Source: Candidatus Krumholzibacteriota bacterium (GTDB taxonomy: Bacteria > Krumholzibacteriota > Krumholzibacteriia > JAJRXK01). Taken from it: a stretch of DNA of 64,000 bases. Shown here piece after piece: positions 6,342 to 19,044 of this stretch. The position numbers were made by a program, and so were the translations under genes. Position 1 is the stretch's first letter. Every line of letters begins with the position of its first letter. The notes under the pieces are model-generated. The model was not told the DNA's origin. It saw only the letters and a list, made by a program, of their open reading frames with translations, and ran no database searches. The stretch lies in the NCBI GenBank assembly GCA_963727455.1, contig CAVSGG010000010.1:32001-96000 (forward strand), given 5' to 3'.

Positions 6342-6423
6342 CCAAGTTGGTCGAATCGTGGGGGGATGCGGGGGCCCGTCCCGCGCGCAGCGGGACAGGC
6401 CCCACCCACGTTCGAGGTCCTGC

Positions 6424-9400
6424 ATGCGCTCGTTCTTGCTATCCTTGCTTCTTCTGACCCTGGTCGGGGTGGAAGCCGCTCCTGCCCAAGAGACGCTCAG
6501 CCTGCCTCTGAAACCCCTGTTGCGCGATGTCCGGCTGCAGGGACTACCGGCTCTTGAATCCATTCTGCTTCACGGTGCGCGCCCCGCGCGCCAGGAGGAC
6601 GGGGGAGGGCTCCCGAGTCTCAGCTACTGTCTGATCATTCCCGCCTCGAGCCGGGTGCGCTCCGTCTCGCTCGAGGGAGGAAGCGAGCGCTTCGTTGCCT
6701 CTGCAGAGGCGCTTCGCTCCAGCAGCATCCTTTCTACCCCACTGACGAGCAGGGAAGGCAATGTCCCCGCGGTGGAGTATGTCGGGGACGCATGGTGGCA
6801 TGGACGCCATTTGATCTATCTGCGCGTGAGACCTCTGCGAGTGGAGCAGGAGAGCGGGGATCTCTACCTGCGCGAGGGAGGAAAGATCCTCGTCGAGTTG
6901 CAGGGTGCCGAGCCGAAGGAAGAGGTCGTCGGGCGCGTTCTTCCCAACGAGGGCGTTCAGCGGAGAGATCGCGCAGAGCTGTTGCGAACGATCGCCAATC
7001 CGCAGGATTTGGATCGTTTCACGACGCTGCGGCCGCTCACAAAGGCCTCGTCCGCGAAGACGGCTGCGCTTCCGGCGAGCGATAAGATCCCCAGCCTCCT
7101 CACCGGACCTTACCGTTATCTGGTGATCACACGCGATAGCCTCGTGCCGCAATTCGAGCGTCTCGCGGAACTCCGAGAGCGACAGGGACTCCCCTCGACC
7201 GTGGTGAGCGTGGAAGAGATCGAAGCCAACGGACGGCGGGGGCTGGATCTGGCCGAGACCATCCGACTCTATTTGCAGGATGCCTACGAGAAGTGGGGGG
7301 TCGACTACGTTTTGCTCGGTGGCGATACCGAGATCATTCCCACCCGCTACGTGACCTCGACCTACTACCCATCCGGGGGCGAAACCCAAATCCCTGCCGA
7401 TTTCTACTTTGCTGGTCTCGACGGGTCCTGGAACGCAGACGGGGATGCGACCTTCGGCGAACCCTACGTGACCGGTGCGAATCCGGGGGACTATTGTGAC
7501 TTCGTGCCGGAGCTTGCGATCGGAAGGGCGCCGGTCAGCACGTTCGAGGAAGCTACGGTCTTCGTCGACAAAGTGCTGGACTACGAGAGCGGAGCGGACG
7601 GTGAACGCTTCGCCCACGCACTCTTCGGTAGTGAAGTGCTCTTTCCACCGGCTTGGCAGCCTGGCGATCCCATCACACGCGATGGGGCATCCTTCAGCGA
7701 AACCCTGGTTGCCAGCATCGAGCTGGCGCGTCCCGGCGAGTGGACCCTCACTCGCCGCTACCAGAACTACACGAGTTATCCCGGAGCGCTGGAGGAAACC
7801 TACGCCGCGATCCTGTCCGATCTAAACTCGGGAAACTATGGGCTGTTTCATCACATCGGCCACGGCTTTTACTACAACATGAGCGTGGGAGACAAGAACA
7901 TCCTGGTGAGCGACGCCGATGCGCTGACCAACGGATCCTCCACCTTCGTGCTCATGGCTCTCAATTGCGACTCGGCCGCATTCGACTTCAACTGTCTCTT
8001 GGAACGCTTCCTGCGCAATCCCAACGGAGGTTCGGTGGCCTCCATCGGTTCCTCTCGCGCCGCCTTCGACAACACGACCGGTAGTTACCAGCAAGCGTTG
8101 TACAAGGCGCTTTTCGCGGCGCGCCGGCAGCGCCTGGGCGATGCAATTCTCGAAAGTCGTTTGGGTTTTGCGGTGGACACCTTCTACAACACGGTCGACC
8201 GTTGGACCCAGCTCGTGTACACCCTGCTCGGCGATCCGGCCATGCGCATGTGGACGGCCGTTCCCAAGCCCATCACGGTGAGTGCGCCCGCCATGGTGAC
8301 GGTCGGTAGTGGTCCTTTGGCGGTCACGGTGGACGAGACTCAGGGCGGCGGCGTGGATTCCGTCGCGGTGGTCCTGCGCAAACCGGGCGAGGATCTCATA
8401 GCGGGTTGGACCGACGCGAACGGAGAAGTGAGTCTTCCTTTCGCGCCCAAGGAAGCGGGGAGCTGGACCTTGTGGGTGAGTGGGCGCGATGTCATGCCGG
8501 ACAGCATGACGGTGCAGGTCACGGCAGCCACGCAAGCGGCGCTGGCCCTGTCGGGATTCACCCTTGACGATTCCCAGGGCAACGGCAACGGGATCGCCGA
8601 GGCCGGCGAGCTCGTCAGCATTCTGCCCGCTCTGATCAACGGAGGACAATCGGTCTCCAGCGCAGGGACCCTCACTCTGAGCACAGAAGACGAAGGCGTC
8701 ACTCTCCTGCAGGACGTGGCGGGCTTTTCTCCGCTGGCCGCCGAGAGCCCCGGGGCGGCAAACGGACCGTTTTCGCTTCAACTCGCCGCGGATCTCGCGG
8801 ACGCCAGCCGCTTGCACTTCCTGCTCTCGATCGACGAGGACGGCGGGGGCCACTTCGAGGATTCCTTCGATCTGACCGTCTCGGGAGGGAATCTCCAGAT
8901 CATCTCGCTCGATTTGGATGACGCGAGTGGCAACCAGGATGGAATCCTCGATCCCGGCGAGCAGGTCTTTTTGAATTTCACCCTGAAGAACTTCGGAAGC
9001 GCGAGAGTCGACTCGGTGAATGGCGTACTGCGCTCGCTGGATCCGCTGGCGACGGTCATCGATTCCACCGCGCACTGGGGCCTCTTGGACGGAGCTCTCA
9101 GCACGCAGGACAACGGACAGGATCTTCTCGCGGTGCAAGAGAGCGATACCGCGAATCCACACCTCTATCGCCTGCTCCTGACCGACAGCGCGGGAGCTAC
9201 GCACTCCTTCGACTTCGATTTGCGCCGCCCCGCGGCGCTCACGGGTCTCGAGCCCGGTCTCGCCCAGGCTGGCTCGGTGCTCTTGCGTTGGGATCCTTCG
9301 AGCGCGGCGGATCTCTTGGGCTATCAGGTGGAGCGACGCGTGAAGGGGCAGAGTACCTGGATTTTCGCCAATGCCGATCTCTTGCAAGCCGGCTCGGTGT

Positions 9401-11187
9401 TCCTGGACGAGGGACTGCCCGATCGTACTAGCTTCGAGTATCAGGTGCGCGCGGTCGATCGCGCAGGACTTGCCGGTCCGGCCTCGGAGATCATCACCGC
9501 GGTGACGCCGCCGCCGGAAGTCGGATGCTTTCCCCTGCCCATCGATCAGGAGACTAGAGGAGCCTGTGCGGTGGGCGACGTGGACGGCGACGGCGTACTC
9601 GACTTGGCGGTGGGCTCGGGTCACATCTATTTGATCGACGGTCTGTGCCGCGAAAAGGTGGACGGGGATGACAACGCACAGACTTTCGGGCCGCTCGCCG
9701 GCGTCGGGGGAGGATTCCAGCCTTCGGGCATGACGCTGGGAAATTTGGATCAAATCGGCACGGACATGCAGATCGTGGGCGAGAACTGGACGAGCCATGA
9801 ACTCTACATCTACAACGCCGACGGCAGTCTTCAGAGCGGTTGGCCACAGACCTTGGGCTCCAAGGCCTGGACCACCCCGGTACTGGGTGATCTCGACCAG
9901 GACGGGAGCCTGGAGATCATCACCAACGACATCGGTGGATTCACTTACGCTTTCCACATGGACGGCAACGAGGTGGCCGACGGAGATTCCAATCCCCAGA
10001 CCAAGGGTCCCATCGCTCCGCGCCGCACCGGAGAGAGCTTTGGCCGCACCACGCCGGCACTGTACGACGTGGACAACGATGGCAAGCCCGAGATTCTCTT
10101 CGGTTCGAAGTTCCAAAACGGCGCGCCCGAGTACTTCTACGCCCTGAAGGGCGACGGGAGCGGCAACGCGGCGGGTTGGCCCAAGATCATGGAACCTCTC
10201 GCGACCTTTCTCGCCAGCCCCGCAGTGGGTGACCTCGACGGTGACGGGCAGATGGAGATCGTGGCGCCCTGTGATAACGATAGTCTCTACGTGTGGGAAA
10301 CGGACGGGACCCGCTTCCCCAACTTCCCGGTGTACCTCCATGCACGGGCAATTGATTTCGACAGCCAGATGCCATCCCCGGCTCTGGCCGATCTCGACGG
10401 CAACGGAACCCTGGAGATCGTGGCGGTATCGATCGAATTGGCCTCGGAGGCCAGGGTGTACGTCTTCGACGACTCGGGAAACGTGAACCCGGGTTGGCCG
10501 CAAGTGGTCCCCGGACTGTCCGAGAGTAGCCCGGTGGTGGCCGACCTCGACGGCGATTTGGAACCGGACATCGTTTTCGGCATCGGCGGCGGTACGGACA
10601 ATCTGCCCAATTTGCTTTACGTGTGGCACGCCGATGGCGTCCCCTTCGAGGGCTTTCCGATTCCTCTGGAAGGTTACGTCTGGGCCACGCCGACCCTGTG
10701 CGATTTCAACGGGGACGGACGGGCCAACATCGTTCTCGCATCGTGGGACCGTCTCATCCACGTGTGGGACATGGGGGGCACCTGGCGTCCCTCGCTTGCG
10801 CCCTGGCCCACGTTCCATCAGAACGCGCGCAGGGACGGAGTCCACCCGCTTCCGCCGCTCACCGCCCGCGGGGCGGGAGCAGAAACGGAAACGGACGCGA
10901 GCCGGCCGCGCCTGGCTCCCAACGTCCCCAATCCCTTCAACCCTGCGACCGCGGTGAGCTTCGTGATCCCAGCCGGCGGTGCGCGTCCCTGCGAATTGAC
11001 GATCTTCGATTTGGCGGGGAGAAGGGTACGGGTGCTCGCGCGCGGCCCGCTGGCGCCCGGACTCCACGAACTTCGCTGGGACGGACGCGATGATGCCGGT
11101 AGGGCCGTGGCGTCCGGAGTATATTTCGCCCACCTGCTCGTCAGCGGATTTGAGGCCCAAAGCCAAAAGATGGTCCTCGTGCGCTGA
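6424..11187 (+). CDS. Second C25-family gingipain-like peptidase, paralog of 1521-6341 with the same architecture
   Basis: Signal peptide MRSFLLSLLLLTLVGVEA; YVLLGGD, HHIGHG, LNCDSA, YTLLGDP; FG-GAP repeats; PNVPNPFNP...WDGRDDAG...SGVYF tail. Confidence 0.85.
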   Translation: MRSFLLSLLLLTLVGVEAAPAQETLSLPLKPLLRDVRLQGLPALESILLHGARPARQEDGGGLPSLSYCLIIPASSRVRSVSLEGGSERFVASAEALRSSSILSTPLTSREGNVPAVEYVGDAWWHGRHLIYLRVRPLRVEQESGDLYLREGGKILVELQGAEPKEEVVGRVLPNEGVQRRDRAELLRTIANPQDLDRFTTLRPLTKASSAKTAALPASDKIPSLLTGPYRYLVITRDSLVPQFERLAELRERQGLPSTVVSVEEIEANGRRGLDLAETIRLYLQDAYEKWGVDYVLLGGDTEIIPTRYVTSTYYPSGGETQIPADFYFAGLDGSWNADGDATFGEPYVTGANPGDYCDFVPELAIGRAPVSTFEEATVFVDKVLDYESGADGERFAHALFGSEVLFPPAWQPGDPITRDGASFSETLVASIELARPGEWTLTRRYQNYTSYPGALEETYAAILSDLNSGNYGLFHHIGHGFYYNMSVGDKNILVSDADALTNGSSTFVLMALNCDSAAFDFNCLLERFLRNPNGGSVASIGSSRAAFDNTTGSYQQALYKALFAARRQRLGDAILESRLGFAVDTFYNTVDRWTQLVYTLLGDPAMRMWTAVPKPITVSAPAMVTVGSGPLAVTVDETQGGGVDSVAVVLRKPGEDLIAGWTDANGEVSLPFAPKEAGSWTLWVSGRDVMPDSMTVQVTAATQAALALSGFTLDDSQGNGNGIAEAGELVSILPALINGGQSVSSAGTLTLSTEDEGVTLLQDVAGFSPLAAESPGAANGPFSLQLAADLADASRLHFLLSIDEDGGGHFEDSFDLTVSGGNLQIISLDLDDASGNQDGILDPGEQVFLNFTLKNFGSARVDSVNGVLRSLDPLATVIDSTAHWGLLDGALSTQDNGQDLLAVQESDTANPHLYRLLLTDSAGATHSFDFDLRRPAALTGLEPGLAQAGSVLLRWDPSSAADLLGYQVERRVKGQSTWIFANADLLQAGSVFLDEGLPDRTSFEYQVRAVDRAGLAGPASEIITAVTPPPEVGCFPLPIDQETRGACAVGDVDGDGVLDLAVGSGHIYLIDGLCREKVDGDDNAQTFGPLAGVGGGFQPSGMTLGNLDQIGTDMQIVGENWTSHELYIYNADGSLQSGWPQTLGSKAWTTPVLGDLDQDGSLEIITNDIGGFTYAFHMDGNEVADGDSNPQTKGPIAPRRTGESFGRTTPALYDVDNDGKPEILFGSKFQNGAPEYFYALKGDGSGNAAGWPKIMEPLATFLASPAVGDLDGDGQMEIVAPCDNDSLYVWETDGTRFPNFPVYLHARAIDFDSQMPSPALADLDGNGTLEIVAVSIELASEARVYVFDDSGNVNPGWPQVVPGLSESSPVVADLDGDLEPDIVFGIGGGTDNLPNLLYVWHADGVPFEGFPIPLEGYVWATPTLCDFNGDGRANIVLASWDRLIHVWDMGGTWRPSLAPWPTFHQNARRDGVHPLPPLTARGAGAETETDASRPRLAPNVPNPFNPATAVSFVIPAGGARPCELTIFDLAGRRVRVLARGPLAPGLHELRWDGRDDAGRAVASGVYFAHLLVSGFEAQSQKMVLVR

Positions 11188-11256
11188 GAGGGCTCGGTCC
11201 ATTTGACACTTTGCCTCTGTCGAGTTTTCGTTGCGCGCAACAGAGGAGAGAACGCC

Positions 11257-13866
<2,610 letters not shown>

Positions 13867-13877
13867 AGAGAGTCTGC

Positions 13878-13906
13878 TTGCCGCGGCGCGTCGATCGCGC
13901 TACAGT
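13878..13906 (+). promoter_or_regulatory. Putative sigma70 promoter of the metal-uptake operon
   Basis: TTGCCG-N17-TACAGT upstream of the leader ORF. Confidence 0.5.
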
Positions 13907-13954
13907 CGCGAAGCGAATTCCCCCGCTTTCGCACAAGGTCCGAGGAAGGAACTC

Positions 13955-14257
13955 GTGGTGTCACGCATGGTCAAGAGCCAGCGCTATGTGAGCCTGGCCG
14001 CAGTCCTGGCCAGTGTGGCCATCGCGGTTCTGGTGGGCACTCCCTACCTCCTGCAGTACCACCACCACTCCGACTTCCACGAAAATCCTCGCTGCGCCAT
14101 TTGCGTCTTCGCCTGCGCGCACGTTACGCCTCCCTCGGCGCCCCAGGCGTTGGCGCCGCCGCCAGTCAACGTCACCGTGGTGGCGATCGCAGGGGAAACT
14201 CTCAGCTCCACTTTTCACGTTCGTACTCCGAGCGTGCGGGGACCTCCTAGAGTCTGA
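13955..14257 (+). CDS. DUF2946-like leader peptide, putative metal-sensing ribosome arrest peptide
   Basis: GTG start after GAGGAAGGA (alternative ATG at 13967). N-terminal hydrophobic helix, YHHHSDFH, CAIC, Pro-rich linker, C-terminal RGPPRV*. Confidence 0.75.
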   Translation: MVSRMVKSQRYVSLAAVLASVAIAVLVGTPYLLQYHHHSDFHENPRCAICVFACAHVTPPSAPQALAPPPVNVTVVAIAGETLSSTFHVRTPSVRGPPRV

Positions 14258-14307
14258 AACCCAACGAAATTTCTTCGTCGCGAGTTTTTGACTCTATTCT
14301 GGAGGTT
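14241..14307 (+). promoter_or_regulatory. RBS-sequestering stem-loop (translational attenuator)
   Basis: ACCTCC (14242-47) is complementary to SD GGAGGT (14301-06). TAGAGTC (14248-54) pairs with GACTCTA (14290-96), GAAAC with GTTTT, and there is an apical ACGAA/TTCGT stem. Confidence 0.7.
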
Positions 14308-14315
14308 CATTGCGC

Positions 14316-15422
14316 ATGAAACTGTGCGTACACGCTTGCACCTGCGTGTGTGTTGCGGCCGTCCTGACATTTTCTGTCTCGAGAAGTTCCGCGCAGACCA
14401 CGCACTCGATTTTTTCCAATTTGACCAACCCGTCGATCGGGATGAACGCGCTGTTCTCGGGACAGATCGCCCCCGACATCGACGCGCCCTACGGCATCAG
14501 CTTCGACTCGGCCGAGATGAGCGCGATTTCCGTGGTCGATCCCTACTGGACCTTCTGGTCCAATATCACCTTCACCCCCGAGGAGGTGGATCCGGAGGAA
14601 ATCGTGGCCCGTACGGATCGGATCCCTAATCTCCAGCTGCGGGTGGGCAAGCTCAGGGGCGACTTCGGCAAGCACGGGTTACTGCACACCCACGCCTTTC
14701 CCTTCATTCAAGCCCCGGTGATCATGGGCAACACGATCGGGGAGGAAGGCTTCAAGGACTCGGGTCTGGAGGCCTCGTGGCTCACTCCGCTGCCGTGGTA
14801 CTCGGAGCTCACGGGCGGCATGTTCAAGGCGATGGAGGCCGGCGAGGAGAACCCACTCGACTTCGGCTCGATGCGCCACGAGAACGTTCCGTACCTCGGC
14901 CATTTCAAGAACCTGTTCGATCTCAACGAGTCGACCACTCTGGAGATCGGGCAGTCGTTTCTGCAGGGGCGCGGAGAAGATGGCCACCGGCACGCGGTAT
15001 TCGGTGCCGACCTGACGGTACGCAACGTGCCGCTGCGACGCTCGAACAGCCGCGGCTGGATCCTGCAGGGGGAGTACATCCAGAAGGGCACCTTCGCGGG
15101 TGGAGACTATTTCAAGGAGCAGCGCGGCTGGTATGCCTCGTTCAAGTACCGGCTGTCCCAACGATGGTGGGTCGGAGTCCGCGGCGAACAGGGCCGTGAC
15201 TGCACCACCGAGGTCTTAGTCGATTCGAGCGGCGATCCCATCCCCGGCAAGGTGAGTCGTGCCTCGGCGAACATCGCTTGGACTCCCTCGGAGTTCTCGT
15301 ACATCCGCCTGGAGTACAGCGTCACCCAGGGCGACGACGGGATGGGTTTCAAACCGACCGACCACCGGCTCATGTTGCAGATGAGTTATACCGTCGGCTA
15401 CCACCCGGCTCATGCCTACTAG
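14316..15422 (+). CDS. Outer-membrane beta-barrel of the zinc-regulated OM receptor/porin-like family
   Basis: Signal peptide; NPSIG, FGKHGLLHTHAFPF and C-terminal GYHPAHAY His motifs; alternating beta-strand pattern; sits directly upstream of a metal SBP. Confidence 0.7.
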   Translation: MKLCVHACTCVCVAAVLTFSVSRSSAQTTHSIFSNLTNPSIGMNALFSGQIAPDIDAPYGISFDSAEMSAISVVDPYWTFWSNITFTPEEVDPEEIVARTDRIPNLQLRVGKLRGDFGKHGLLHTHAFPFIQAPVIMGNTIGEEGFKDSGLEASWLTPLPWYSELTGGMFKAMEAGEENPLDFGSMRHENVPYLGHFKNLFDLNESTTLEIGQSFLQGRGEDGHRHAVFGADLTVRNVPLRRSNSRGWILQGEYIQKGTFAGGDYFKEQRGWYASFKYRLSQRWWVGVRGEQGRDCTTEVLVDSSGDPIPGKVSRASANIAWTPSEFSYIRLEYSVTQGDDGMGFKPTDHRLMLQMSYTVGYHPAHAY

Positions 15423-15479
15423 ACGGACGGGCACCGTGAACGCAACGGGCCTCACCGGCAACCCATTCTGGAGGAACTC

Positions 15480-16403
15480 ATGAAATCGCTGTTTCGAACC
15501 CTGACCATAGTGAGCCTGAGCCTGCTCATGGCCGTGCCCGCGCGCGCCGAACACAAGTTGCAGGTGGCCACCTCTCTGACCGATCTCGCCTCCGTCGCGC
15601 GCTTCGTGGGCGGCGAGCACGTGAAGGCGAAGAGCCTGTGCAAAGGCTACGAGGATCCTCACTACGTACCGGCCAAGCCGAGCTTGATGAAGGCCATCCA
15701 GCACGCCGACGTCTACGTGTCGACGGGCCTGGAGCTGGACATCGGGTGGCTGCCCCTGGTTTTGCCCGGAAGCCGGAATCCCAAGATCCAGCCGAGCCGA
15801 GAGGGCTTCGTGGATGCCTCCGAGGGAGTTCCCGTATTGGAAAAGCCGACGGGCACGGTGAGCCGGGGCGAGGGAGACGTTCATCCGCTGGGAAATCCGC
15901 ACTACTATGCCGATCCCAAGAACCTGGAGATCGTCGCTTCCCAGCTGGCGGAGGTGTTTACTCGTCTCGATCCCGCCAACGCGGCCGACTACCAGGCCAA
16001 TGCCAAAGCCTTCAAGGAGAGAATGGAGACCTCGCTCGCGAAGTGGGAGAAACAGATGGCGCCGTATGCAGGCACGCAGGTCGTCACCTATCACAAGAAC
16101 TTCATCTACTTCGCCACGCGCTTCGGCCTGAAGATCTTCGACACGGTCGAAAATAAACCGGGCATTCCGCCCTCTCCGCGCCACGTAGCCGACCTGGTGG
16201 AGGCGATGAAGGCGAATGGGGTCAGGCTGGTCGTCTATCAGCCCTACTACAACGCCAAAGTGTGCAAGGAGGTCGCGAAGCGGGCGGACGGGACGGCTCT
16301 GGAAATTGCAACCGAGTGCGACGGTCTTCCCGGGACGGACGACGTCTTCAAGAAGTTCGACCTCCTCGTTTCCTCCATCGCCAAAGCTCTGTCCGAGAAG
16401 TGA
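15480..16403 (+). CDS. Zn/Mn ABC transporter substrate-binding protein (ZnuA/TroA, cluster A-I)
   Basis: EDPHY, GDVHPLGNPHYY, VTYH and ENKPGIPPSPRH motifs; signal peptide. Confidence 0.9.
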   Translation: MKSLFRTLTIVSLSLLMAVPARAEHKLQVATSLTDLASVARFVGGEHVKAKSLCKGYEDPHYVPAKPSLMKAIQHADVYVSTGLELDIGWLPLVLPGSRNPKIQPSREGFVDASEGVPVLEKPTGTVSRGEGDVHPLGNPHYYADPKNLEIVASQLAEVFTRLDPANAADYQANAKAFKERMETSLAKWEKQMAPYAGTQVVTYHKNFIYFATRFGLKIFDTVENKPGIPPSPRHVADLVEAMKANGVRLVVYQPYYNAKVCKEVAKRADGTALEIATECDGLPGTDDVFKKFDLLVSSIAKALSEK

Positions 16404-16414
16404 GGTAGTTGCCA

Positions 16415-17302
16415 ATGGAATTCCTACAAGTCATGGCGCTGCCGATTCTGGCGTGCTTTCTTCTGGTCTTGATTCACCCCTCCCTGGGCCAGCACGTACT
16501 GGCCCGGGGCGTGATTTTCGTCGACCTCGCGCTCGCGCAGATCGCTGCCCTGGGAGGCAGCGTCGCGTTCCTCTTGGGCGCGGACCCGCACGATCCCAGC
16601 ATGTATTTCTGGTCCTTCGGGTTCACTCTTCTCGGGGCGGCGCTCTTCAGCTTCCTCTGGGACCGCAACCACTCCGTGCTGCAGGAAGCGTTCATCGGAA
16701 TCTCCTTCGCACTGGCCACCGCGGCCAACCTGGTGCTTCTGTCCAACGCACCTCACGGCGCGGAACACGTGCGCGGTGCTCTGAGCGGCGAGGCCCTCGG
16801 ATGGGTGACCTGGAAGGACATCCTCATCATGGCGGTTCTCTACGCGATCGTGGGGGCATTTCTGTATCTCAGTCGCCGGCAGCTTTTCGCCTGCTCGCAG
16901 GACCACAAGAAGGCGCGCGAGATGGGACTCTCGGTGCGGAAGTGGGACTTCCTCTTCTACGCCTCCTTTGGTCTGGTGGTCACCAGTTCGGTGAAGGTAT
17001 CTGGGGTGCTGGCGGTGTTCTCCTATCTCATCGTGCCGCTGGTCTGCTCCACCCTGCTCGGCAAGAGGGGGCGGGCACGGCTCTACTGGGCCTGGGCGCT
17101 GGCCTTCGTGGTTTCGATTCTGGGTTCGGTGCTTTCTTACACGAGGGATTGGCCGATGGGTGCGACCATCGTGTGTCTCTTCGGTGTGACGGTGGCTGTC
17201 ATCTCCCTCTTCGTACGCATGAAGAACGTCGACCCGGAGCGGAACGGTGATCAACTCGCGGGCGCGGAGTTTCAAAATGGGGAGCGCGGCATGACACGCT
17301 GA
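16415..17302 (+). CDS. Metal ABC transporter permease (ZnuB/MntB, ABC-3 family)
   Basis: Multiple TM helices; RGVIFVDLALAQIAALG, GVLAVFSYLIVP, DWPMGATIV. Confidence 0.85.
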   Translation: MEFLQVMALPILACFLLVLIHPSLGQHVLARGVIFVDLALAQIAALGGSVAFLLGADPHDPSMYFWSFGFTLLGAALFSFLWDRNHSVLQEAFIGISFALATAANLVLLSNAPHGAEHVRGALSGEALGWVTWKDILIMAVLYAIVGAFLYLSRRQLFACSQDHKKAREMGLSVRKWDFLFYASFGLVVTSSVKVSGVLAVFSYLIVPLVCSTLLGKRGRARLYWAWALAFVVSILGSVLSYTRDWPMGATIVCLFGVTVAVISLFVRMKNVDPERNGDQLAGAEFQNGERGMTR

Positions 17303-17424: not shown

Positions 17425-19044
17425 ATGTTCTCAGATTGCCCCCTGCCTCGCCTCTTGCTCGGTGTGCTCCTGCTTCTGTCCGCCTGCCAAGCGGACAAGC
17501 AGGACGCGGCCGAGCCGGTCATTCCCGCCAAACCTCTTTACGGAGGCACTCTCCGCATCGCGGCGAGCAGCGAACCCGACGTGCTCAACAGCTTGATCAC
17601 GACCTCCGGTTACAGCAGCCGCATTCTGGCACTGGTGAATGACGGGCTGGCGAGCTTGAACGAGCGTCTGGAGTGGGAGCCGGACCTCGCGCAGTCGTGG
17701 ACTTGGTCGCAGGACGGGCTGGTGCTGACCTTTCATTTGCGCCAGGGTGTGCAGTGGAGCGATGGTCAGGACTTTAGCGCCTACGATGTGCAACGCAGTT
17801 ACGAGCTGTACATCGATCCCCGGATCTCCTCGTCGCGCCGCAGCAATTTCAAGGACATCGAGTCCTTTACGGCTCTGGATAGTCAGACGGTGGAAGTGCG
17901 TTTCTTGCGGCGCAGCCGCGACCAGCTCTTCAACGCGAACCTGAGCATCTTCCCGGCCCACATCGTAGACCACCTCGATCCCAACGAAGTGCAGAGTTGG
18001 CCGATCAACCGCCGTCCGGTCGGGCTGGGGCCCTACCAACTCAAGAGCTGGGAGTCGGGATCGCGCATCGTGCTGGAGCGCAATCCGCATTACTTCGGGG
18101 ACAAGCCGTATCTGGACGAGATCGTCTTCGAGTTCACTCCGGAACAAGCCGTTCGGCTCCTGCGTTTGGAGGCGGGCGAAGTCGACATGGTCGAGAATAT
18201 CGCCCCCAAGGACGAAGGACGGCTGCGAAAGAGCGCTCCCTGGATCAAGATCTATCCCATCTCGGGCAGGCTATTCGGCTATCTCAATTACAATGTGCGC
18301 CGCGCCTTCTTGAGCGACGCTAGGGTACGACGCGCAATTTCGCACGGGATCGACCGCAAGGCATTCACCGAGAACTTGATGTTCGGGCGGGCCCAGCCGG
18401 CGGCATCCCTCATTCCTCCGGCTTTGGCCTGGGCCCACGACCCCAATCTCGCTCCCGACGCGTTTGACCCGGAACTCTCGCGCCGTCTCTTGGCCGAAGC
18501 GGGATTTGAGGATAGCGACGGAGATGGGGTGGTGGAGAAGGACGGTAGACCCTTTGAGGTCGAGATCACCACGCGCACCGGCGACCCCGTGCGAGAAAAC
18601 GGCGCTCTCATCCTGCAGGAGAATCTGCGGCAGATCGGCATCAGGGTGAAGCTGCGCCTGATGGAGTACTCGGCCGCCTTGGCCGAAGTGCGAGCGGGCC
18701 GGTACGACATCTACTACGGACACTTCGGAAGCCGCATGTCGGTCGATCCCACCATGCTCGTGTGCACGGGCGGGGCGGTCAATTACGGAGGGTACTCCAA
18801 TCCCAAGATGGACGCGTTGGTGGAGGAGGGTTTGGAGACAATGGATACCGACAAGGCGCGGGCCATCTGGTATGAATTCCAGAAGTTGTGCGATGAGGAA
18901 CAACCCTGGACGGTGTTGTATTACTACGATTCCCTGGTGGGGATCCAGAGCGCGTTCCAGGACTGTACTCCCAACAATCTCTCGCCTTTCTATGACATCG
19001 AAAAGTGGTGGTTGGTGCCCTCTCTCCTGCGCGGGCGCCGTTGA
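17425..19044 (+). CDS. Peptide/nickel ABC transporter substrate-binding lipoprotein (SBP family 5)
   Basis: Lipobox LSAC; PDLAQSW, TFHLRQGVQWSDG, PVGLGPY, DARVRRAI. Confidence 0.9.
   Translation: MFSDCPLPRLLLGVLLLLSACQADKQDAAEPVIPAKPLYGGTLRIAASSEPDVLNSLITTSGYSSRILALVNDGLASLNERLEWEPDLAQSWTWSQDGLVLTFHLRQGVQWSDGQDFSAYDVQRSYELYIDPRISSSRRSNFKDIESFTALDSQTVEVRFLRRSRDQLFNANLSIFPAHIVDHLDPNEVQSWPINRRPVGLGPYQLKSWESGSRIVLERNPHYFGDKPYLDEIVFEFTPEQAVRLLRLEAGEVDMVENIAPKDEGRLRKSAPWIKIYPISGRLFGYLNYNVRRAFLSDARVRRAISHGIDRKAFTENLMFGRAQPAASLIPPALAWAHDPNLAPDAFDPELSRRLLAEAGFEDSDGDGVVEKDGRPFEVEITTRTGDPVRENGALILQENLRQIGIRVKLRLMEYSAALAEVRAGRYDIYYGHFGSRMSVDPTMLVCTGGAVNYGGYSNPKMDALVEEGLETMDTDKARAIWYEFQKLCDEEQPWTVLYYYDSLVGIQSAFQDCTPNNLSPFYDIEKWWLVPSLLRGRR

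Follow-up and report, generated by a model that had tools for sequence, protein, structure and literature searches.

In most accounts, bacteria control their zinc uptake by means of Zur, a transcriptional repressor. An operon of an uncultured bacterium labelled Krumholzibacteriota, found in a window of 64,000 nucleotides, raises the question of whether metal uptake might also be controlled during translation, by a small peptide encoded just upstream of the uptake genes. The order in this operon is leader, porin, ZnuA and ZnuB, and a preliminary description of the sequence had proposed that the last codons of the leader arrest the ribosome and at the same time mask the ribosome-binding site of the next gene. 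We consider it rather likely that the leader is a CruR/CutF (DUF2946-like) regulatory peptide that heads the porin-ZnuA-ZnuB operon and acts as a translational metal switch.

The CruR/CutF-like leader ORF (13955..14257; this and all features below are on the forward strand) starts with GTG and encodes 100 residues. The ribosome-binding site GAGGAAGGA (13942..13950), 4 nt 5' of the GTG at 13955, is kept in close relatives. The translation begins MVSRMVKSQRYVSLAAVLASVAIAVLVGTPYLLQYHHHSDFHENPRCAICVFACAHV and ends SVRGPPRV. Residues 12–33 (codons 13988..14053) are uncharged and hydrophobic, with the positive residues R4, K7 and R10 N-terminal to them, and the AlphaFold2 model places a helix at residues 8–36; both agree with the N-terminal membrane or signal helix assigned in the preliminary description. 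This anchor or signal segment is followed by a putative metal-binding patch, H36 H37 H38..H42..C47xxC50...C54.H56 (14060..14122), which includes the HHHxxxH of residues 36–42 and a CxxC (CAIC, residues 47–50), then by the proline-rich stretch TPPSAPQALAPPP (residues 58–70) and, with a CxxC-to-Arg spacing of 44 residues, by the arrest motif R95 G96 P97 P98 (cgg gga cct cct, 14237..14248). Two residues, RV, separate RGPP (residues 95–98) from the TGA at 14255–14257. The His motif, CxxC, Pro-rich spacer and terminal RGPP-RV-stop previously read from the letters are all present at their positions. The model has a mean pLDDT of 81.5 and a pTM of 0.43, and no secondary structure in the last 45 residues.

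The downstream gene (14316..15422), already taken for an outer-membrane barrel, encodes a porin-like protein of 368 aa whose AlphaFold2 model (pLDDT 79.7) has 16 strands. Its best structural matches with Foldseek are chitoporin, OprO/OprP and Omp32; BBP2, Porin_4 and LbtU match weakly, and no NCBIfam model matches the porin of the window. H124, H126 and a C-terminal HPAH are invariant in the porin family, and from these conserved His the porin may be an outer-membrane channel dedicated to metal. The next gene (15480..16403) encodes a ZnuA-family substrate-binding protein of 307 aa (PF01297, E 6e-49), whose best solved relatives are Synechocystis ZnuA (2ov1/1pq4) and AdcAII (3cx3), and the last one (16409..17302) an ABC-3 (ZnuB-type) permease of 297 aa (PF00950, E 1.1e-27), which is AztB/ZnuB-like and below the NCBIfam cut-offs. 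The binding protein has a His aligned at all three ligand motifs of solved zinc proteins. These three His, which we take to be the metal ligands in ZnuA and AdcAII, probably point to zinc. The earlier label of a Zn/Mn-uptake operon had left the choice between the two metals open.

Upstream of the leader lies a promoter-like pair (13878..13906), with TTGCCG as −35 (13878–13883), 17 nt, and TACAGT as −10 (13901–13906). Both hexamers are kept in 4/4 aligned close relatives and the spacer between them varies; a consensus scan upstream of the leader called no sigma-70 promoter, this pair included, and no terminator. It had been remarked that no AT-rich Zur/Fur-type palindrome is visible there, and indeed no inverted repeat was found in 13850–13970. 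With this result and the unconserved promoter spacer, a Zur/Fur-type operator was rejected, a weak or atypical operator being possible.

We then looked at the RNA between the leader and the porin gene. Folding of 14225–14325 with RNAfold gives a single hairpin (14234..14315) of −38.2 kcal/mol that sequesters the porin ribosome-binding site. The Shine-Dalgarno sequence of the porin gene, GGAGGT (14301..14306, with the ATG at 14316), has its exact complement in an anti-Shine-Dalgarno ACCTCC (14242–14247) inside the arrest codons, and in the window its pairing probability with the xPP codons of the leader is 1.00. The 5' arm of the hairpin, 14234–14254, pairs with 14290–14296, 14301–14308 and 14310–14315, and the inner stems TAGAGTC/GACTCTA, GAAAC/GTTTT and ACGAA/TTCGT lie at 14256–14288, so that the 58-nt gap between leader and porin is nearly all base-paired. 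The ACCTCC/GGAGGT pairing and the three inner stems, like the fold over the barrel gene's ribosome-binding site, had been proposed from the letters and were recovered here. The fold is more stable than expected, since shuffles averaged −25.0 (sd 3.6; native z −3.65) and 0/200 were as stable, and an identical hairpin formed on folding the longer stretch 13860–14340. When the last leader codons of the window were recoded synonymously the mean was −26.3, and none of 60 recodings reached the native −38.2. As a background we used the bacterium's own genome, where 397 same-strand ORF pairs have gaps of 40–120 nt; in only 14 of them does pairing between a strong ribosome-binding site and the final 24 nt of the upstream ORF reach P >= 0.8. 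Relative to 14243, the codon proposed to occupy the P site, the 5' arm spans −9 to +11, a stretch that a stalled ribosome would cover given the footprint size that we assume.

No Rfam family matches 13800–14450 at E <= 1, and a known RNA family was therefore rejected as the identity of this region. An intrinsic terminator or attenuator was rejected as well, since none turned up and the hairpin lacks a U-run. At the porin-to-ZnuA junction the ribosome-binding site also pairs with the final porin codons (P 0.99); this pairing was dropped as a signal, the fold there being no better than shuffles (z −0.53).

To what extent are the peptide motif and the hairpin conserved? In 29 of 30 loci that share the class of the window and carry the label Candidatus Krumholzibacteriota, the 16-strand porin gene has a highly divergent leader 5' of it, the thirtieth locus having just 118 nt of upstream DNA; the ZnuA gene is 3' of the porin in every class locus tested (27–28). 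The class leaders are mostly 13–20% identical overall, and no column is invariant apart from the R, P and P of RxPP (29/29). The core is RAPP in 18 leaders, RGPP in 6, RSPP in 4 and RDPP in 1, and homologues at 65–87% identity all end SVRGPPRV. The metal patch has the family consensus H..HH...H..C..FH. A Cys is found 43–45 residues N-terminal to the Arg in 24/29 leaders; 12 of the 29 have CxxC, 12 more have one Cys at that position, and some have His without Cys.

As for the hairpin, the ribosome-binding site is paired with the last codons of the leader at P >= 0.79 in 26/29 class loci, the three others giving 0.65, 0.04 and 0.03. Mean pairing was 0.89 for the native sequences compared with 0.46 for synonymous recodings (Wilcoxon 1.6e-7, a P value that overstates the evidence because the genomes are related and not independent). 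Part of the predicted pairing therefore comes from the peptide motif alone, since Pro-Pro codons pair easily with GGAGG, as the recoded value of 0.46 indicates. CCT encodes the first Pro in 19/29 class leaders, with 3.06 expected; it never changes in four close relatives, in which the wobble base of the Arg codon is G, T, C and A, and in one class locus CCCCCC is paired with an AGGGGGT site. Synonymous sites are selected for pairing with the ribosome-binding site. The consensus hairpin fold is kept in the 4 alignable relatives; one relative has an A.A mismatch in the stem. Covariation among these 4 sequences is thin (2/30 pairs change on both sides; covariation term +0.12). The few strain variants, from contigs of four DNA runs, include one disrupting an outer G-U pair and another disrupting an inner A-U pair, and a metagenome scan gave 3 loci, with the hairpin reached in one only. 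As regards expression, the 8 public runs listed include no RNA holder.

The leader extends well beyond the class: it is widespread in Krumholzibacteriota and about ten other labelled phylum-level groups, mostly uncultured. The leader-family profile matches 259 cluster representatives at E <= 0.001, and among the 149 profile matches listed RxPP stands 1–10 residues before the stop in 145 (104 RAPP, 22 RGPP, 16 RSPP and 3 RDPP) and CxxC at the expected place in 93. All 27 database relatives lack Pfam domains and informative names. Porin, ZnuA and ZnuB occur together in 77 further loci with enough upstream DNA, which were located via the porin alignment, the leader alignment having no conserved stretch of 7–10 columns. 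An RxPP leader, always RAPP, RGPP, RSPP or RDPP, is present in 65 of them, and no RxPP ORF was found in the other 12. In 45 more distant loci the pairing reaches P >= 0.8 in 15 and P >= 0.5 in 26, and is below 0.1 in 11; gaps are longer there, with a median of 101 nt and a maximum of 340, and often the ribosome-binding site is paired with other sequence. The preliminary description had named loss of motif and hairpin from homologous loci as what would speak against a switch. RxPP proved conserved both in the class and among the listed matches; the stem is well conserved in the class, with thin covariation and strong pairing in a third of the distant loci (15/45). The bacterium's own genome holds 54 small ORFs ending R[AGSD]PP. 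These were rejected as further leaders: except for the present leader and a repeated insertion-sequence-like ORF, they look like the out-of-frame noise of a genome rich in G+C.

A link to DUF2946, CruR and CutF had also been suggested. The leader of the window stays below the gathering threshold of Pfam PF11162 (DUF2946; 10.9 vs 23.7 bits, E 0.81), its sub-threshold match covering profile positions 55–117, and a search of the genome with the DUF2946 model gave 3 weak matches, the leader not among them. DUF2946 is nevertheless the sole recurrent Pfam family among class leaders, always sub-threshold (8/29 at E <= 1, best 0.0011), as it is among the 149 listed profile matches (19 at E <= 0.001, best 1.2e-5). 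The published defining features of the CruR family, as given in PMC9426467, are a CxxC, a RAPP-type ending and a spacing of 44–45 residues, and the leader has all three, at the head of a metal operon. Because its score is under the DUF2946 threshold, we regard the leader as a divergent form within the known CruR/CutF type.

CruR (Bp2923 of Bordetella pertussis, the DUF2946 prototype) is likewise the first gene of a metal-uptake operon (PMC9426467), and shares with the leader an N-terminal export or anchor segment, a CxxC and a RAPP-type motif 2–3 residues before the stop. Between CxxC and Arg, CruR has a spacer of 45 residues, described as conserved within 1–2 residues and as important for metal control (PMC9426467); the spacer of the window is 44 residues long. 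CruR has RAPP, whereas our leader has RGPP and an additional HHHxxxH patch; the CruR target is a TonB-dependent copper receptor and not a porin with a zinc-type ZnuA/ABC-3 importer, its gap is 162 nt with Rho-dependent termination instead of 58 nt with a hairpin over the ribosome-binding site, and its host is a proteobacterium. RGPP and RAPP are described as the strongest arrest cores, RSPP and RDPP being partly permissive (PMC12992588), and all four are cores of the leader family. The RGPP of the window is of the strong type that resists EF-P; except in small proteins of a leader-like nature, it is reported as the most avoided tetrapeptide in many bacterial phyla (PMC12992588).

CutF (Rhodobacter capsulatus cutFOG) is, like the predicted leader peptide, an exported DUF2946-type peptide with a Pro-rich C-terminal stall (PMC9973294), and its stem-loop, which masks the cutO ribosome-binding site and is melted by stalling (PMC9973294, 10.1101/2025.02.05.636593), has a counterpart in the window hairpin, whose 5' arm would lie under the stalled ribosome as in masks of the CutF and SecM type. 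CutF differs in having CxxxC and an EF-P-sensitive PPP core, and its anti-Shine-Dalgarno (CTTC) sits in the intergenic stem-loop, in contrast with that of the window, which lies within the arrest codons (PMC9973294, 10.1101/2025.02.05.636593). ApdA and ApdP are small membrane-targeted leaders with an R-A/G-P-P core near the C-terminus, as in the window, but they precede Sec-pathway genes and are thought to be localisation monitors (PMC7897499, PMC10951233). Our leader has instead metal-import partner genes and a conserved putative metal-binding patch, and the genes downstream (porin, ZnuA, ABC-3 permease) include none of the localisation machinery.

Taken together, these features indicate that the leader and its anti-Shine-Dalgarno arrest codons probably form a translational metal switch. 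We infer that stalling probably occurs, that zinc is probably the metal and that metal probably releases the stall. The hydrophobic segment would bring the nascent chain to the membrane, with the His/Cys patch emerging on the periplasmic side, and the ribosome would arrest at R95-G96-P97-P98, its P site holding the codon for P97 and its A site that for P98, the register demonstrated for CruR, whose arrest was followed in vitro with a toeprint, and also described for ApdA and ApdP (PMC12992588). The arrested ribosome would cover the whole 5' arm 14234–14254 and leave GGAGGT (14301–14306) free, so that a second ribosome could initiate on the porin gene, with ZnuA and ZnuB then being expressed. 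Binding of metal, most likely Zn(II), to the His/Cys patch would release the arrest through pull or folding; termination would occur two codons on, the hairpin would re-form and uptake would be turned down. With CCU-CCN as both Pro-Pro codons and anti-Shine-Dalgarno, one six-base stretch would encode the stall as well as the mask that the stall removes.

The direction of this response is the logic expected from CruR, in which metal ends the stall and lowers uptake (PMC9426467). It is not readable from the family, since CutF works the opposite way, copper inducing its stall and the target being a detoxifying oxidase (PMC9973294). The leader might thus behave like CutF, metal prolonging the stall and turning the operon on, either in response to metal excess or because the ligand is not the transported metal. 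At the RNA level CutF, with its ribosome-binding-site stem-loop melted by stalling (PMC9973294, 10.1101/2025.02.05.636593), is the better match, and polarity is not fixed by sequence; we still regard this direction as quite unlikely, because an importer set (porin, ZnuA-type protein, ABC-3 permease) induced by its own substrate would be maladaptive, because CruR, at the head of an uptake operon, is set free by its metal (PMC9426467), and because the core here is an EF-P-resistant RGPP (PMC12992588) and not the EF-P-sensitive PPP of CutF. The stall might also act on transcription, with the hairpin secondary. In CruR the stalled ribosome is described as blocking Rho loading, and its release leads to Rho-dependent termination (PMC9426467); here termination would fall before the porin. 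This mechanism has been demonstrated for CruR, the gaps of the distant loci (median 101 nt, up to 340) resemble the 162 nt of CruR, and it is compatible with a translational hairpin switch. It appears unlikely in the window, where the 58-nt gap is nearly all paired and offers little free C-rich RNA for Rho, where no intrinsic terminator was found, and given that the synonymous-site selection is specific to pairing with the ribosome-binding site.

Two further explanations do without metal sensing by a stalled peptide. In one, the leader serves for constitutive coupling or pausing, or as a membrane-insertion monitor like SecM, MifM or ApdA whose stall is released by Sec/YidC pull, the His and Cys being incidental or serving the mature peptide. 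RAPP-type arrest peptides were first found as localisation-machinery monitors (PMC7897499, PMC10987492), and any ribosome at the stop codon would briefly open the hairpin. We find this very unlikely, as the partners are porin, ZnuA and ZnuB in all loci tested with no sec or yidC gene downstream, as the His-rich patch and a Cys at 43–45 residues are conserved in leaders otherwise nearly unlike, and as CxxC-RAPP spacing matters for metal control in CruR (PMC9426467). In the other, the product is a small metalloprotein that stays in the membrane in stable form, such as an importer accessory or chaperone, with RxPP and hairpin non-regulatory. Its constant association with transporter genes and the mean pLDDT of its model would fit; that only R, P and P are invariant, that the C-terminal 45 residues are unstructured with a low pTM, that RGPP is the sequence most avoided outside leader-like small proteins (PMC12992588) and that secreted CutF is rapidly degraded (PMC9973294) argue against it. 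It also leaves the synonymous-site selection for pairing unexplained, and we hold it to be highly improbable.

If the translational metal switch is correct, sensing of periplasmic metal by a nascent peptide would form a second, faster control layer at the level of translation, and the CruR/CutF principle would extend from copper to zinc. We tentatively propose a zinc-sensing nascent peptide here, which would be the first case of an arrest-peptide switch controlling a ZnuA-type importer, with arrest codons doubling as the mask. In the literature we found no paper on a zinc-type case of a CruR/CutF-like leader, and the main text of PMC12992588 does not mention zinc. The leader family is unannotated yet common, and always accompanies the porin; with one hundred codons and a 58-nt hairpin the system is compact and easily tested, and it should work in a surrogate host. 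It is also a clear case of one RNA stretch selected for both the encoded peptide and base-pairing, and this double use, for which the rare CCT codon is strongly selected, may be part of the reason that RAPP-type motifs are recruited so frequently as leader switches. At least nine small His-rich CxxC peptides ending in RAPP, known from a listing alone, resemble the leader of the window and lie 5' of outer-membrane genes of about 400–500 codons with a zinc-related name.

The leader ORF (13955-14257, + strand; GTG start, 100 residues) lies downstream of ClpB (11203-13866) and is followed by genes for a 368-residue porin-like protein (14316-15422, weak BBP2 porin match only), a ZnuA-family binding protein (15480-16403, E 6e-49) and an ABC-3 permease (16409-17302, E 1.1e-27). 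The peptide features listed in the preliminary description were all confirmed letter by letter. R4, K7 and R10 precede hydrophobic, uncharged residues 12-33, which are followed by a His/Cys patch (HHHxxxH at 36-42, CAIC at 47-50, plus C54 and H56), a Pro-rich stretch (58-70) and the end R95-G96-P97-P98-R-V-stop. AlphaFold2 predicted a helix at 8-36 and a short one at 48-55, with residues 56-100 lacking secondary structure. The four closest relatives retain the −35/−10-like pair seen at 13878 and 13901. Around the leader, neither a terminator nor a consensus promoter was called, and no Rfam family matched the leader/hairpin region. Upstream of clpB, a 1609-residue ORF (6358-11187) has a signal-like N-terminus.

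Within the codons gga cct cct (14240-14248) lies ACCTCC, which is complementary to GGAGGT (14301-14306), a site located 10 bases 5' of the porin-gene ATG at 14316. When 14225-14325 was folded with RNAfold, a single hairpin was obtained (14234-14315, −38.2 kcal/mol), and the identical structure was recovered in a 481-nt context. Shuffles of the same segment averaged −25.0 kcal/mol (z −3.65), none of 200 matching the native stability. Both the anti-SD/SD complementarity proposed earlier and the expected fold were thus borne out.

SVRGPPRV is the shared C-terminus of all close leader homologues (65-87% identity). With the porin as anchor, we surveyed 151 genomes from the class and kept the 30 best-matching loci; a 91-184-codon ORF was found immediately 5' of the porin gene in 29 of them, the 30th locus having 118 nt of upstream DNA only, and ZnuA directly followed the porin in all 27 class loci tested. 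The 29 leaders are mostly 13-20% identical to that of the window and share one plan: hydrophobic N-terminus, His-rich patch, Cys, RxPP, 2-8 residues and stop. As had been anticipated for homologous loci, RxPP is conserved, R, P and P being the only invariant columns in 29/29 leaders (RAPP 18, RGPP 6, RSPP 4, RDPP 1). In 24 leaders the Arg is preceded, at a distance of 43-45 residues, by a Cys, which in 12 of them is the second Cys of a CxxC. Four leaders (L032, L034, L037 and L040) lack the conserved Cys and have a KFH motif and numerous His instead, as His-only variants of the sensor patch. At L027 (genome G112, contig C6) an intact leader stands before a porin gene with three TGA and one TAA stops, and the ZnuA ORF has just 112 codons; judging by these lesions, this operon looks like a decaying copy.

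The predicted probability that the porin RBS pairs with the leader's last codons, from Arg to stop, was at least 0.79 in 26/29 class loci (exceptions 0.65, 0.04 and 0.03), and that of pairing with the xPP codons themselves was at least 0.87 in 18/29. For 397 same-strand ORF pairs of the organism's own genome with gaps of 40-120 nt and a strong RBS, the mean pairing of the RBS with the upstream ORF end was 0.12, and it reached at least 0.8 in only 14. Under synonymous recoding confined to the leader's last codons and drawn from local codon usage, mean pairing fell to 0.46 from a native 0.89 (Wilcoxon 1.6e-7) and the energy weakened to −37.5 from −41.1 kcal/mol (Wilcoxon 6e-5). Since related genomes are not independent, these P values set an upper limit to how strong the evidence is. 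For the window's hairpin, none of 60 recodings was equally stable. The first Pro codon is CCT in 19/29 class loci, compared with 3.06 expected from local usage (9.9% of Pro codons), and one class locus has CCCCCC arrest codons facing an AGGGGGT site. The wobble position of the Arg codon shows each of the four bases across four close relatives, whereas CCT is invariant. In the alignment of their stems 30 pairs are predicted; all eight site/mask pairs are kept in 4/4 sequences, and covariation is weak, with 2/30 pairs changing on both sides and a covariation term of +0.12 for these four sequences; one relative has an A.A mismatch adjoining the hairpin core, and strain variants include one G-C to G-U change and two that weaken pairs. 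In 45 more distant loci, where gaps are longer (median 101 nt), pairing with the leader end was at least 0.8 in 15, at least 0.5 in 26 and below 0.1 in 11. The stem conservation expected in the preliminary description therefore held as pairing in most class loci, only weakly as column-wise covariation, and not throughout the distant loci. Because pairing is patchy in the latter, the arrest-codon mask, though typical of this class, does not extend to the whole family; elsewhere in it, a relay structure or, as for the Bordetella pertussis copper leader CruR, Rho may be used.

With the P97 codon (14243-14245) in the P site, the 5' arm (14234-14254) would span about −9 to +11, which falls within the ribosome's mRNA channel; an arrested ribosome would keep the entire arm single-stranded and the GGAGGT site free. 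The exit tunnel holds about 35 residues and the translocon spans 15-20. At arrest, 97 residues would have been synthesised, the last ~35 lying in the tunnel and the next 15-20 across the translocon, so that in this inferred geometry H36-H42 would be just exposed to the periplasm and C47 and C50 would sit at the channel mouth. The 44-residue spacer would be fixed because the tunnel and translocon lengths position the patch. Metal binding to the exposed patch, or its folding, would exert a pull on the nascent chain that ends the arrest; the ribosome would terminate two codons on and the hairpin would re-form. Such a polarity, in which metal releases the stall as in CruR, would be the sensible one for an importer.

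Our best guess for the leader's ligand is zinc, Mn, Ni or Co being possible alternatives. The best solved relatives of the binding protein are the zinc proteins ZnuA (Synechocystis) and AdcAII, and each of its three ligand motifs (DPH, NPH, YH) has an aligned His; His instead of Glu at the third is a mark of zinc-type binding proteins. The nearest NCBIfam models, AztC and AztB, are also of zinc systems, with scores far under their cut-offs. Cu(I) would be a poor fit because several leaders contain His without Cys. The product of 14316-15422 was modelled as a 16-strand barrel (AlphaFold2, alignment of 27 relatives; pLDDT 79.7, pTM 0.77) most similar, among solved structures, to chitoporin, OprO/OprP and Omp32; on this model it is a porin-like channel and not a TonB-dependent receptor. 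H124 and H126 (LHTHQxPF) and a C-terminal HPAH (GSHPAHxY) are invariant, the LbtU siderophore porin gave weak matches in 9/27 porin relatives at E <= 1, and the protein may be a metal-selective outer-membrane channel. The permease gene is the last of the operon, followed by an SBP_bac_5 binding protein (17425-19044). No gene for an ABC ATPase (motifs Walker A and LSGGQ) was found on the same strand 3' of the permease in the 77 loci scanned among L051-L130; the permease's ATPase must either have its gene at another site or be of an unusual kind. The znuA GGAGG site is itself predicted to pair with the porin gene's last codons (15385-15492, P 0.99), in a fold no better than shuffles (z −0.53).

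For CruR it is reported that RAPP mutants no longer express the downstream receptor and that the arrest is relieved by copper (PMC9426467), and that during the stall the two Pro codons occupy the P and A sites (PMC12992588). Among arrest cores, RAPP and RGPP are reported to be strongest and to depend least on context, RSPP and RDPP being partly permissive (PMC12992588). The RxPP variants among our relatives are exactly these four. The window's leader has the motifs and the spacing (44 residues) of the CruR family but scores 10.9 bits with the Pfam DUF2946 model, against a threshold of 23.7. The DUF2946 search suggested in the preliminary description thus stayed below threshold for this leader, yet DUF2946 is the sole family recurring among relatives (8/29 class leaders at E <= 1; 19/149 among the matches listed at E <= 0.001). 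The RNA half of the mechanism is shown for the Rhodobacter capsulatus copper leader CutF (PMC9973294; preprint 10.1101/2025.02.05.636593). The principle is already known from CruR (2022) and CutF (2023-2025) (PMC9426467, PMC9973294), and the window's leader is probably a variant of it. RAPP upstream ORFs are already catalogued in an EMBO J 2025 study (PMC12992588), and probable members of the present family are in public tables without comment. The word zinc has no occurrence in the main texts of PMC9426467, PMC12992588 and PMC9973294, although supplements might list zinc-type neighbours; a literature search combining "arrest peptide", "zinc" and "ZnuA" returned nothing, and the available portions of literature naming both DUF2946 and zinc do not treat a zinc-type leader switch.

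A profile of the 29 leaders retrieved 259 cluster representatives at E <= 0.001 from 1.84 billion proteins. Among the matches listed, 145/149 carry RxPP at a distance of 1-10 residues from the stop (RAPP 104, RGPP 22, RSPP 16, RDPP 3). None of the 27 database relatives had a Pfam domain or an informative name. A porin-alignment scan of species genomes gave 80 loci, with porin, ZnuA and ZnuB consecutive in essentially all. An RxPP-ending small ORF was present in 65 of the 77 loci whose upstream DNA reaches 300 nt or more and absent from 12, one of the positives being apparently spurious and 14 being records already counted. The records nearest the window are labelled Candidatus Krumholzibacteriota; further labels, given as in the records and in some cases doubtful, include Eisenbacteria, Poribacteria, Latescibacterota, Gemmatimonadota, Binatia, Nitrospinaceae, Calditrichia, Neomarinimicrobiota and others. 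Six loci with the operon and a porin 63-66% identical to the window's (L053, L067, L068, L070, L072 and L075, labelled Limnocylindrales, Saccharimonadaceae, Dormiibacterota, Saccharimonadales, Udaeobacter and Acidiferrales, respectively) are possibly mis-binned contigs or recent transfers. In the organism's own genome, contig C9 (+ strand) carries four copies of an ORF ending in GTAQRAPPRA, with RAPP 3 residues before the stop (about 228885-229296, 255376-255649, 259518-259812 and 263890-264322); the ORF, which has a CPQCGG motif, is probably the transposase C-terminus of a mobile element.
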